A DNA stretch of 61,567 nucleotides, counting the filler, from Bipalium vagum (taxonomy: Eukaryota): assembly GCA_037834085.1 (NCBI GenBank). It is 3 parts of 3 records of this genome, joined end to end, with 100 filler letters (N's around TTAATTAATTAA, not from the genome) between each part and the next. Parts side by side here need not be neighbours in the genome. Positions count along the whole stretch, not along the records: positions 20,758 to 42,669 come from JBBMKC010229417.1; 2 more parts are not named here. One strand, given 5' to 3'. Below, one piece after another: positions 36,730 to 42,509 of the stretch (the first letter of the stretch is position 1; each line of letters begins with the position of its first letter). The position numbers were made by a program, and so were the translations under genes. Under the pieces are notes generated by a model, which made no database searches, was not told where the DNA came from, and worked only from the letters and a program-made list of their open reading frames with translations.

Positions 36730-37858
36730 TTATGAACATTTAATTAAATCACAATATCATGAATTTTATGGTCAAGATATATTTAATATTTTTTTAGAAT
36801 TTCTAAAAAATATTAATATCAAGTTAACTGTGATATAATAAAAAATACAAACATTCCAACTCGTCGAGCGAAAAAGATGAAATAAACTGGAATAAATCAA
36901 AAAATGTTATTATAAAAGTTTAAATGAAAACAAAGTAAAAGATCACGATCATTTAAATATAGAAAAAATATAAAAGAGCATCTCATAATTCATGAAATAA
37001 TAGGCGGTAAGTCATTAAAAAACTTCTTTATTCCATTTTATTTTCATAATGGTTCGAAATATGATTTCCATTTATACTTTATAGAATTACCATCTACGTT
37101 TCCTAAAGAAAACTTTAAAATAATATTACATACAGATGAAGATTATATGAATAAAGCTTTAAATGATTTTAACTCGGTACCCGAAATGACTTCTTCCTAC
37201 AGTAATGAGAACTTTGACTTAAGTTATTACTTTAAAGAAACATATTTTAAATATTATGATGCCAATTCGTTATATTCAAGTTGTTTGACAGTACCTTTAT
37301 CAACGGTGAACTATATATAAGTGTATGGCGTATAAGAACAAAACAAAGATATATAAAAGAACGAAGTTGGAATTGCGAAGCAAAGAACAATTATACCAAG
37401 AAAAAACCTTCAACAATTCATGTTGACAAAGTTTACATATATGTAGTAGCTTTAATATATCCTCCCGAAATACATGAGAAAACTAAAAAATTCCTTTATG
37501 TCCAGAGAAGATTAAAATAAATGATTCGTTATTAACTAATTATCAAATTATAAATAGAATATCTAATATATTTAATACGAAACTAATGCTTACTCAATTT
37601 GATAAAAATGAATATATGGTAGAAGGATCATTATTAGATTTCTTTTTAGATCAAGGTGTGATTTTAAAAAATGTACATAAAAAACGGGTATTAAAAAATC
37701 AACTTGGTTAAAAGGTTATGTAGAATTTAATATTGAAAAAAGAAATGAGTCTAAAAGAAATAATGATGCACTTGGTGATTTCTTTATAAAATTTTTAAAT
37801 AATGCGTTTTATGGTAAAACATCAGAAAATGTGAGAAATGGACAAAACGTTGAAAATT
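36730..37858 (+). pseudogene. Maverick/Polinton protein-primed family-B DNA polymerase (fragmented)
   Basis: Motifs in order: KVKDHDHL..KYKRASHNS (endoVII-like), FIPFYFHNGSKYDFHL, YYDANSLY, YPPEIHE..FPLCPE, KLMLTQFDKNEY and KSTWLKGYVEFN...FFIKFLNNAFYGKTSENVR. Confidence 0.92.
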
Positions 37859-37859
37859 C

Positions 37860-38662
37860 ATTTTGAACATCCATTTTACCTTTAAAATCTGAATCTTTTA
37901 AAATATGTAAAGTTACAGCTGAACCATTAATACATAAACTTTCTGGTTGATCTTTTAAATCAAAATAAAATATAGAATATAAATTTTGAAATTCTAATAA
38001 ACTTGATTGAGGATCATTATTAAAGTATTTACGTGCTTTTACATAATTAGAATAATTTCTATTATTTTTACCTTTTTCAAATTGTATAGGATTTAAAGCA
38101 TAGTATGACCTATTAACTTGAACACTTAAACTTTTTATTTTAATTTGAATAAACAAACTATTGATTTTATTAAAATTAAATCCTGATTCTCTATCAGAAA
38201 TATATATATATTTGGTACAATATATAATTGTAATATTTGTGTAGTTCATTCTGTTAAACTTCTTTCTTCACAATGTCTGGATAAAAAATTTACATTTAAA
38301 AATTTTCCATCTTTTATTCTTCAAAAAGATTTAACTCACTTGATGGATTTAATTGTAATTCTGGAATAAATATTTTTAAATCAATTACTTTTAATTTTCC
38401 ATCCCCATTTGCTCCATAAAATATTTCTTTATCAAATATTTCTTGTAAATGTTAATTTTCCTTGCATGTTGTAAATTATTCTTTTATATTAATAATGTTG
38501 TAAAAATTCAATCATTAATTTTAGTGGAAATTCTTCTATAAACTTATTATTTGAGTATAATTTTTTTTATCTTTAAATCCTTTGTAATTGTAATTCTGAA
38601 ATGAATAATTTTAAATCTATTAATTTTAATTTTGCATCTTCTTGGATTCCATAAAAAAATCC
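37860..38662 (-). pseudogene. Maverick/adintovirus major capsid protein (double jelly-roll) fragments
   Basis: FPLKLMIEFLQHY..RIIYNMQGKLTFTRN, KLKVIDLKIFIPELQLNP and IKSLSVQVNRSYY..EFQNLYSIFYFDLKDQPESL resemble Polinton MCP motifs. Convergent with pPolB. Confidence 0.7.
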
Positions 38663-38664
38663 TG

Positions 38665-41600
38665 CCTTCCTACTGCAGTTAAACAGGTATTTGTATTTAC
38701 TGTACTGATCTATTTTGCCTAGGATGTACTTCTTCTTCCTCTCGGTTTCCGTTAACGAACCACAAATGTCGATATAAATGTTCTCAAACATTTCAGATGC
38801 TTTCAATTTGACTGTGGCCTTTTTTGTCGTCGATGTAACTATTTTATGCTTCTGGCACGCTTCGTATCCTGATTATACCCTCCGTACTTTACTCCAAAAA
38901 CCTTTAAAATCATGTCTCCCCTTCATATATTCCACGACCTTCTCAATAACTGCATGAGCCAATTCTTTATGAACATTTATTATTATCAAGTTCTTTTCTG
39001 CATCTTTAATGTCTTCTGCTCCTATTGCATCCAACATCCTGAATTTCATCTTTCCCTTCTTCGCCTCTTCATACGCTAATTGGCAGTGAGCACATGTTTC
39101 GCATCTTGGTCTAGATAACAAATCTGCGTTTGTATGTATGGAACTTTTCCTGTATTCGAATTTAATGCCAAGACTGCTCAAGTAATTAATCCACGCTTGG
39201 AATTTCGACTTGGTCGGCTGGTCATCATGAAGGTGATTACTTTATGATTTGTTCTCAGTCTGAACCTCCTTCCGTATAAATAATGTTGAAAGTGATTACA
39301 GAAGTAATAAATGGAAAGCAATTCCTTTCGAGTAATACAGTAACAAATTTCATGACTGCTCATGGCGTGAGAACCGTATACTATCACTCGTTCTTTTCCA
39401 TTTTCATCCAGTTGAGACAGAACTGCTCCTATTGAATCAAAGCTCACATCTGTATCTATGATAAATTCCTTCTTAATATCAGGGAAACACAGTACTGGAC
39501 TTGATGTTAATGCTTTTTTCATCTCCTTGGACGCTTTTTTCATCTCAAGTGTCCATATTAATTTCTTCTCACTCTTTCCACACACTCTCTCCAAGGGCCT
39601 AGATCTCTTCGAGTATTCTTATATAAATCTTCTATAATAGTTACAGCTTCCTAAAAACTTCTGAATCCTTTTACGCATTTTGCTCTTTCAAAATTTTTAA
39701 TCGCCTCCAACTTTGAAGGGTCTGTCTTTACCCCATTTCTACTCACCAATGACCCAAAAACTTTATTTCCTCTTTCAGTAAATGACACTTTTCTGGATTT
39801 ATTCTTAGTCAGTTCTCAGTACTTCGATCAGAACCTGATAATGTTCACTTTCTGTCCCAGTAAACAGTAATATGTCATCCAGATAGGCCATTGTTCCTTT
39901 TATACAACCGACGATCTTCGTCATTATCTCCTGAAATATGCATGGAGCTGCCGCTATTCCAAAGGGCATTCTATCAAAACAATACTGTACTTCCTTGGTA
40001 GAAAAAGCCGTCTTGATCTTTGATGCCTCCTCTAATTCCACTTGATAGTAGGCATTATCTAAATCAATGGAACTGAAATAATTTGCCCCGCCTAAGGCTT
40101 CCAACATTTCATCTACATTTGGCATCGGAAATGCCGGTTTTTTTGCGTCACTGCATTTAACTGCCGAAAATCCAAACATATACGGATATCTTTCTTCTCC
40201 TTCTTCCATATGCAACGGCTGGTTCTAGGGTGAATTGCATTTCTTAATAATTCTATTGTCGTATATGTTCTTAACTGTCTCTTGTATCTCTATCTAGATT
40301 CATCGGCTGTATAAACGGCTTAAGATAAATTGCTTCTCCTGTTGCCCGAATATGGTGTTTCACTAGGTGCAGACAACATCCCACTTATTGGCCATGAAAA
40401 CATTCTCACCATCTTTTATTATTTGCACCGGCCACCTGTTGCTTATCACACTTGTTAGCTCTACTGCTCTCCTAAAGCGCTCCCGTTCCTTAACTTCATT
40501 ACCAAACTTCACTTCAATATTACACATATGGGATTCTTCCTTTACCTTTCCACCAGTTTTGATCTGCTCGGAATTTTCTTTAACCAATCTAAATCCAAAT
40601 ACCTTATGGAGATTTATTCCTCCGGTACTACTGTAAATTTCACCAGTTTTGACTCATTTGCAACTCTCACTAGAATGAACATGTTTCCACTATTTTAAAT
40701 TGGCAATTGTTCGCACACCTCAATCTTTCATTACTTCTCACTACTTCCACGTCTTAGGCTTATTCAAAATTTTCCTACTCATTACTCTGACACCAGCTCC
40801 AGTATCTAATAATCATTCGAATCTTTGTCCTTGAATCTCCACCTCAAAATCATTAAAGTCTGTCTTCATGAACTTCCACACTTTCACCCATTCTTCATCG
40901 CTAACGACGTTTAATATAAGGCTCCCACTCCCTCCCCAACCAACGGAGCCTTGTCTTTTGGGTACTGATTTTGGTGTTCTTCGTATTCAACCAGTTCCTG
41001 CTAATGTGTCCCTGATATGTACAGGGACAGCATTCTATTTGTCTCCTTGTCGTACAGTTACCAGCTCAATGACCCTCCTTATTAAGCCCGTAACATTTAA
41101 TTGTTTCTCTTTCGTTTTGTCTTCCTTTAAATGAATTGACTAGTGTTTCATCATTGTGTGTTACCCTCCTTGTAACAACATCTTTATAGCCGTACTTTTC
41201 TTTTCTTTTTCTTTGATGTCAGTCATCAATCTCATTAAATCTTTAATTTCGTTTCTTTTCTCCAGCCATTTCATTCTGACTTCCCGCTCTACCTCATCAT
41301 CTCCAATACATTGAACCAAAAACAGTGCCTCAAGCTTTTTAACTGTCAGATCATGTTCCAGTGCTTTCTCTACTAATGATCTTACCTTCCTAAAATAAGC
41401 TTCTATATCTTCACTGCCTTTTATATACGTTATTAATTCTTCTAGGCCGTCCACGACATTTTTTTTTCGAATAATATTAAGATTTTTGCTTCAAACAGCT
41501 TACATTCCCAGATGTTCCCTCACAGGCTTCTCATAGATTTTCATATAACAGCGCATAAATCGGTTTTTCTCTCTTCTTTATTGGGATCTCCTTAATGTAA

Positions 41601-41720: not shown

Positions 41721-41914
41721 GTTGTTATTTTTAATAATAATATAAGATAAAAACAAAATAATATATCTCATTAAATCCGACTTCTTAAAAAAACTTTTCA
41801 ACATGAACTTCATCTTCTTTTAAAATTAAATTATTTACTCTATAAAAATTTTCCAACATTTATTTAAATATTAAAAAAAAACTGTAACTTAATAATTTTT
41901 AAAAACTCAAAAAA

Positions 41915-42180
41915 GTCTCCAAATATTGTATCAAAAGTATCTGTTATAGATCTTCCACTTTTAATTTTTAAAGGTATAGCAAAAGCGTATCTTGTGTATA
42001 AATAAATAATTGTTAGGATTATTTTATAAGATTTTTTTCCTAGTAAAAATATTAAATCTGCTGACCAAATATTATCTTTATTAAAAACTTTAACTTTAAG
42101 ATACTGTTTAGGTTTTCTAAATTCTTTATGAAGTTCATTTGCCAATGGTTTTTTTATTTTCTGGTTTTAATTCTTCTTTG
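41915..42180 (-). pseudogene. Maverick/Polinton retroviral-like integrase, N-terminal part
   Basis: LANELHKEFRKPKQYLKVKVFNKDNIWSADL...YKIILTII.LYTRYAFAIPLKIKSG is the typical Polinton integrase start. Confidence 0.9.
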
Positions 42181-42206
42181 CTTTTAAATATTTTTTCATT
42201 TGCAAT

Positions 42207-42509
42207 TCATTTTGTTGGCCTTGGGAAACCCTGACCAAATAAAACTTTACCCTTCATAATTAACTTTACAAAAGCTCTTTCAAATTTTTCTCTTGGCATT
42301 GTATTTTGAATATTATTCATTTCATGTATTATTTCTACATCAGTAACGAGACTATCTTTTAAATCTTTTGAAATATATTTCACATCATGTTTCATTGCTA
42401 TTTGATCAATTCTATTTATAGATAATGAGTCTTTTTTTGAAATTGGAGGAATATTTGGATTTTCTACTACAATATGAATGCCGAGAGATATCAAAAAGAC
42501 ATACTTCAT
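42207..42509 (-). pseudogene. Parvovirus-type phospholipase A2-like protein (adintovirus PLA2X)
   Basis: SINRIDQIAMKHDVKY (HD catalytic motif), a frameshifted N-terminal HSYCS (YCGPG-like Ca loop) and C-terminal FVKLIMKGKVLFGQG. Lies directly upstream of the integrase. Confidence 0.75.

Follow-up and report, generated by a model that had tools for sequence, protein, structure and literature searches.

The locus described here raises the question of what element left broken polymerase, capsid, integrase and phospholipase A2 (PLA2) sequence between positions 36701 and 42464 of a 61,567-nucleotide stretch of DNA from Bipalium vagum (assembly GCA_037834085.1; the window, meaning the whole stretch that was analysed), and of how its PLA2 and integrase were once related. 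All four pieces are homologous to proteins of Maverick/Polinton elements and all are decayed by truncation, deletion and frameshifting, and the locus makes nothing functional. We put a probability of roughly 0.7 on the reading that these are the remains of a Polinton whose PLA2 and integrase were likely one fused gene, the product of which would have been packed into virions and cut by a protease at a Gly-x-Gly site. Decayed Mavericks are common in animal genomes and the relic itself is ordinary; the family of PLA2-integrase fusions is the lead that it offers.

An original prediction, made from the sequence of the window, had named four genes here: a pPolB polymerase on the plus strand, and a capsid, an integrase and a PLA2X on the minus strand. 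A search of 1.84 billion proteins with the PLA2 frame gave 47 matches at E 1e-3 or better, the best at 7.7e-19, with PF08398 present in 37 of the 47 and PF00665 also in 5. The PLA2 retains the catalytic His-Asp, Tyr and Asp and has lost the calcium-binding loop and the N-terminus; a candidate remnant of that loop, near 42480 and in a different frame, was rejected, as PLA2 homology ends at 42464 and not at 42509, where the prediction had placed the edge of the element. The integrase remnant (PF00665, E 1e-3, below cut-off) lacks the second Asp, the Glu and the C-terminal domain. The PLA2 frame had been described as ending in LFGQG, but it runs on for six codons (FPRPTK) before its stop, and the integrase starts 80 bases on in another frame. 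Homology to the fusion proteins P0108 and P0051 extends across this stop, P0108 aligning over both parts at E 7e-45, and the closest PLA2 relatives that reach far enough (P0005, which matches the window PLA2 at 62%, and P0051) are fused. Because relatives carry the fusion and the alignment crosses the window's stop, the two frames were very probably one gene. All four predicted homologies hold, but the PLA2 and integrase are most likely not two genes (Table 1). Pfam gave no direct detection of the window PLA2 or capsid, word-based protein searches with these two fragments returned no match, and scans of viral contigs with the window capsid, the window integrase, P0020, the L015 capsid and the L050 pPolB found no relative; a scan of viral contigs with the fusion alignment found one.

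Table 1. Polinton remnants of the window, followed by the Gypsy sequence between them and the flanking features
Feature	Position	Strand	Evidence
Parvovirus-type PLA2 domain	42237..42464	-	Protein search
Gly-Gln-Gly at PLA2/linker border, candidate GX/G protease site	42228..42236	-	Sequence
Linker between PLA2 and integrase, with one stop (42207-42209) and one frame change	42149..42227	-	Aligns with P0108 and P0051 linkers
Integrase part: start of rve core, first catalytic Asp	41915..42148	-	61% to L015 residues 193-267 of 472
Double-jelly-roll capsid remnant	37866..38566	-	L015 MCP, E 9e-23
Second short capsid piece, diverged duplicate of 38350-38421	38585..38663	-	59/72 bases identical
pPolB remnant, from the exonuclease region through to motif B of the polymerase	36701..37860	+	tblastn of L050 pPolB, E 2e-30; one fragment PF03175, E 5e-4, below cut-off
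Internal region of a decayed Ty3/Gypsy (gag, protease-like, reverse transcriptase, RNase H, integrase start)	38664..41719	-	PF00078, PF17919
Candidate 5' long terminal repeat of Gypsy, 139 bp, 5-bp inverted ends	41720..41858	-	Deduced from its ends and its place ahead of gag
Flank: another Gypsy gag, bearing zinc knuckles, next to the truncated start of pPolB	35590..36600	-	PF00098, E 5e-6
Flank: Tc1-like transposase remnant in place of the element's upstream part; assembly gap next	42465..42669	+	PF13358, E 1e-3 for 42512-42667

Relatives were fetched with an alignment of the fusion, and the best 80 of 387 loci were retained, so that fusions are over-represented in the counts, which say nothing of prevalence: across 81 loci (L001 and L054 appear to be one contig), both domains lie in one open reading frame (ORF) in 55, are split in 17, and only the integrase is present in 9, mostly at contig ends. 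The PLA2 region of P0020 alone, searched against proteins of 228-728 amino acids, gave 62 matches, 34 of which (query counted) list both PF08398 and PF00665; 20 of the 62 are from Lottia gigantea (e.g. P0064 and P0069) and are long proteins without rve. An integrase tree of 70 rows (built from the 76 loci that met a length filter, after merging of identical rows and with a row for the window) places the window integrase in a starred clade of 23 rows, nearest to L009, L010, L014 and L015, and 17 of the 18 loci of this clade that have both domains are fused. In 48 fusions that share less than 90% identity (median 44%), the His, Asp, Tyr and Asp of the PLA2 and the D, D and E of the integrase hardly vary where covered. 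The fusion sits beside pPolB, A32 ATPase and double-jelly-roll (DJR) capsid genes in L032, and beside ATPase and capsid genes in L038 and L040. A model of the natural fusion P0085 (mean pLDDT 79) predicts a helical N-terminal PLA2 domain followed by an integrase core and C-terminal domain of retroviral integrase fold, with a low-confidence stretch at residues 122-131 directly after the junction glycines, and its best fold matches are the integrases of foamy virus and MELD virus.

The PLA2-integrase fusion was not found described in the literature searched, although subscription papers, Repbase, figure maps and supplements may show it; the accessible parts of PMC8502044, PMC3671162, PMC5803895, PMC11161782, PMC4642659, PMC6048507, PMC7805220, PMC4061559, PMC12220804, 10.64898/2026.06.19.733378, 10.64898/2026.10.13.758929 and 10.1101/2024.03.25.586562 do not describe it. 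For Alpha adintoviruses, Buck et al. 2024 report an integrase with a C-terminal chromodomain; the corresponding region is lost from the window, and of 36 complete fusions 9 have a chromo-like tail by pattern and 27 lack one, including the four nearest (L009, L010, L014 and L015). Many fusions, such as P0107, P0108, L015:55-1470 and L024:6690-7985, have a zinc finger or DUF5679 before the PLA2, followed by a GG motif. Other long ORFs were seen in the same set. L071:7459-8925 (+) combines a protease-like motif with an rve integrase in one 489-residue ORF without PLA2, and its sister L081:162-1394 (+) also has a long N-terminal extension; this is possibly a protease-integrase fusion. L003:2182-3513 (-), which has a weak pX match (PF05829, E 0.002), and L056:599-2368 (-) start like small protease ORFs and are possibly further fusions of virion core proteins.

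The junction between the two domains is of a K-x-x-x-G-x-G type, with GxG in 39 of the 48 distinct fusions and GG in 4, against a background of 0.6% of all positions; the suggestion of the original prediction that Gly-x-Gly is a protease-type site gains support from this conservation (43 of 48). A protease-like motif, identified by pattern, occurs on 6 of the 9 fusion loci of at least 8 kb. The protease of the virophage mavirus cuts GG/X and GX/G (the slash marks the cut), and mavirus virions contain the integrase and a predicted hydrolase, MV13, the latter in two fragments (PMC6048507); Polinton PLA2s have been proposed to be packaged for entry (PMC4642659). The junction glycines fit a virion-protease site. 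PLA2 and integrase would be made as one polyprotein and packed into virions, where a viral maturation protease would cut the fusion at the Gly-x-Gly border; the freed PLA2 enzyme is predicted to breach the endosome and the freed integrase to insert the genome. By sequence and by analogy with mavirus, packaging of the fusion with cleavage is somewhat favoured. The chances are evenly balanced for the wider proposal, in which a widespread and apparently undescribed Polinton branch would carry PLA2 before integrase in one virion-packed polyprotein, split at a conserved GX/G, with the window a fossil of an animal-infecting, multi-copy member.

The polymerase and capsid are likewise remnants. Residues 230-377 and ~588-809 of the L050 pPolB (951 residues) align to the window, which lacks the N-terminus, an internal ~210 residues and the C-terminus (residues 810-951, ~140) and is interrupted by several stops and by four or more frame changes. 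The L050 protein scores above the PF03175 cut-off and also has an endonuclease VII profile, a pair of profiles listed for Spodoptera Mavericks too; other pPolBs with higher PF03175 scores gave no match to the window. The pPolB N-terminus, where the OTU domain of an Alpha-class PolB would lie, is lost. The capsid remnant aligns to the MCP of L015 (445 residues; PF21738 DJR, E 4.6e-28) at 45% over 120 amino acids, with a weak alignment of MCP residues 169-216, and lacks approximately the last 26 residues; in the Atlas, DJR capsid clusters lead for it at 0.93, with a low recognition value. The second capsid piece, which the original feature list had missed, is 82% identical to the first over 38585-38656 and directly adjoins the truncated Gypsy integrase.

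Copies of the window sequence were examined in run X1, 10,792 records of which aligned to 29000-42665; contig figures from X1 are among the matches listed, depth was not taken as copy number, and the run may be the source sample and so is not independent support. At a single position in the capsid, as many as 89 X1 contigs disagree with the window, which indicates a Polinton family that is multi-copy in this run and, with the homologies, bears out the predicted relic of a capsid-encoding Maverick/Polinton. Neither of the two outcomes that the original prediction had named as refuting it was observed. No RNA data set was listed as containing the window sequence, which has no bearing on expression. 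The pPolB and capsid had been proposed to converge. Both genes, however, are cut where they meet, and 29 X1 contigs diverge from the window sequence at 37866, so the meeting point at ~37866 is a breakpoint rather than a pair of natural gene ends.

A Gypsy element was said to be nested in the Polinton, and Gypsy reverse transcriptase (PF00078, E 8e-20) and RNase H (PF17919, E 7e-30) do lie between the two blocks; the gag, protease and integrase are labels that we presume from position and motifs. The GC content is 0.37 in the Gypsy versus 0.20-0.24 in the Polinton pieces. The 3' half of the Gypsy integrase and the 3' long terminal repeat (LTR) are missing, no second copy of the candidate LTR is present in the window, and the two LTRs, target-site duplication and continuous host element of a clean nested Ty3/Gypsy insertion were not found. 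Nesting in a single Polinton element is therefore unproven and cannot be shown, given one candidate LTR, no 3' end and an unreadable target duplication.

The best matches were L015 for both integrase and capsid and L050 for pPolB, and both loci belong to the clade of the window integrase, suggesting that polymerase, capsid and integrase share one lineage rather than coming from unrelated families. When 576 ORFs of the 81 loci were compared with the window (E 1e-4), only the four Polinton remnants matched; with no further Polinton sequence recovered from the 61 kb, chance clustering is less likely. We lean slightly towards both blocks being from one inserted copy, later hit by the Gypsy and by deletions. 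Both ends of the remnant have been replaced by other transposon remnants, which leaves no readable 6-bp target duplication, and three Polinton-end motifs gave a single isolated match at 34069. With pPolB, rve integrase and DJR capsid all present as remnants, and no packaging ATPase, penton or cysteine protease found, the locus is best filed as a relic derived from a Maverick/Polinton and not as a complete member.

Several observations weigh against the preferred reading, beyond the enrichment of the fusion counts. Few capsids and polymerases were at hand for ranking best matches, and the window integrase row is short and long-branched, its nearest group having support of 99/75. Protease, ATPase and penton were not found in the window by the ORFs of the relatives, and a Polinton-type terminal inverted repeat is absent among the inverted repeats listed for the window. 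Gene orientation differs from that of the closest contigs, as the capsid of L015 is opposite its integrase and the pPolB of L050 is on the integrase strand. Because of this difference, the Gypsy without a 3' end and the two adjoining capsid pieces, which are 18% diverged, a composite of copies is possible: the pPolB/capsid and PLA2-integrase blocks would be at least two insertions of the same Polinton family, joined with an un-nested Gypsy by deletions. The break at 37866 and the many copies of the family in X1 agree with such a composite, which we hold as a tentative alternative. The capsid and the PLA2-integrase remnants lie on the same strand, however, the rest of the 61 kb yielded no further piece of the kind, and one X1 contig joins 38193 to 42354 directly, a weak point with 27 letters on the short side; these argue for a single copy.

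The remaining adverse observations concern cleavage. Stand-alone PLA2 proteins likewise end in GxG, and the motif may therefore be a structural cap; GxG or GG is absent in 5 of the 48 fusions; a Lys four residues before the cut in most fusions is unlike the adenoviral consensus; some fusions have almost no linker; the mavirus protease leaves some GXG sites uncut (PMC6048507); and ORFs of relatives were called proteases from a motif, Pfam having given them no name. These points suit a fusion that was real but never cut, in which the integrase would keep PLA2 permanently at its N-terminus and GxG would be the end of the last PLA2 helix. We consider this unlikely, as GX/G is a demonstrated cleavage motif of the related virophage protease (PMC6048507), GG also stands just before the PLA2 region in 25 of 55 fusions (by pattern), and the linker is predicted to be flexible.

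An Alpha adintovirus with a stand-alone PLA2X gene next to its own integrase gene, which is what the label PLA2X of the original prediction implied, is very improbable and largely refuted. The stop and frame change between the domains in the window and the split arrangement of 17 of the 81 loci would agree with it, as would the Alpha map in Fig. S2 of Starrett et al. 2021, which lists PLA2X and integrase separately (PMC8502044). The Alpha adintoviruses of that study have a likely animal host, PLA2, integrase and hexon-like capsid in common with the window, but their PLA2X has a C-terminal pX-like domain and a gene separate from that of the integrase (PMC8502044). No pX-like tail follows the window PLA2, which instead leads through the linker into the integrase, and the pX-like matches of relatives are in ORFs other than PLA2. 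Fusion-linker homology crosses the stop, the split loci L055/L056 are interleaved in the tree with the near-identical fused L046/L047, as decay would give, and only 1 of the 18 informative loci of the window's clade is split. The window PLA2 thus most likely formed the N-terminal part of a fusion with the integrase. An arrangement that is partly an assembly chimera of repeats is highly unlikely as well, despite the N gap directly after the locus, the very deep repeat cover, the presence of half of the sampled words in X1 and the lack of a junction-bridging X1 contig among the matches listed, because flanking and Gypsy stretches are matched without difference by X1 contigs of 0.5-2.2 kb and the pieces carry private decay, as in a real old copy.

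Among known systems, the fused PLA2-integrase Polinton is closest in content to the phospholipase-bearing group 2 of Maverick/Polinton elements (Polintoviricetes), with which the window has pPolB, an rve integrase, a DJR capsid (PF21738) and a parvovirus-type PLA2 in common; it differs in being fragmentary and in the fusion of PLA2 to integrase. According to a 2026 preprint, which uses the names Maverick, Polinton and adintovirus interchangeably, phospholipase occurs commonly in group 2 (10.64898/2026.06.19.733378). Mavirus (Born et al. 2018, PMC6048507), with an rve integrase and a predicted hydrolase in the virion and a GG/X and GX/G protease, is a model for how the fusion may work, but there the integrase (MV02) and the hydrolase (MV13) have a gene each, MV13 belongs to the alpha/beta hydrolases and not to the PLA2s, and the host of mavirus is a protist. 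Parvoviruses use the PLA2 of VP1 for entry, a domain of the same family (PF08398) and with the same catalytic residues as the window PLA2; theirs is tethered to a capsid protein, whereas that of the Polinton fusion is tethered to integrase.

No Maverick-Polinton virions have been seen so far, according to the same preprint (10.64898/2026.06.19.733378), and the fusion bears on how the integrase enters a newly infected cell: its link to an entry lipase of virion type, across a conserved protease-like site, is an argument that the integrase travels in the particle. The fusion also offers a simple two-protein test system for Polinton protease specificity, PF08398 and PF00665 in one ORF can serve as a marker for this branch, and PLA2X labels on fragments can be wrong.

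The window is AT-rich and contains two other genes together with many transposase remnants. An amiloride-sensitive (DEG/ENaC) channel gene (PF00858, E 5e-31) runs for 397 codons without interruption at 55614-56804 (-); this family is, we assume, mainly animal, and the host is therefore likely an animal. The HMG-box gene at 33750-34160 (+; PF00505, E 6e-26) has a second copy in run X1 with 63 differences across ~445 bases.

Beside the Polinton remnants, the flanking gag shares 35% identity over 92 residues with the first Gypsy gag. On the other side, positions 42465-42511 presumably belong to the Tc1-like remnant, to which they are given on a motif; when the window was searched against itself, 42380-42669 had no Tc1 match. 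The gaps at 20658-20757 and 42670-42769 each have a 12-base palindromic AT linker between two runs of 44 N, which is an assembly join and not biology. A dispersed repeat has two copies (32019-32415 and 49619-50393) with three pieces that are 71-81% alike, and further transposase remnants are of Mariner (1778-2164), ISXO2-like (23712-23921) and Tc1-like (26523-26810) type.

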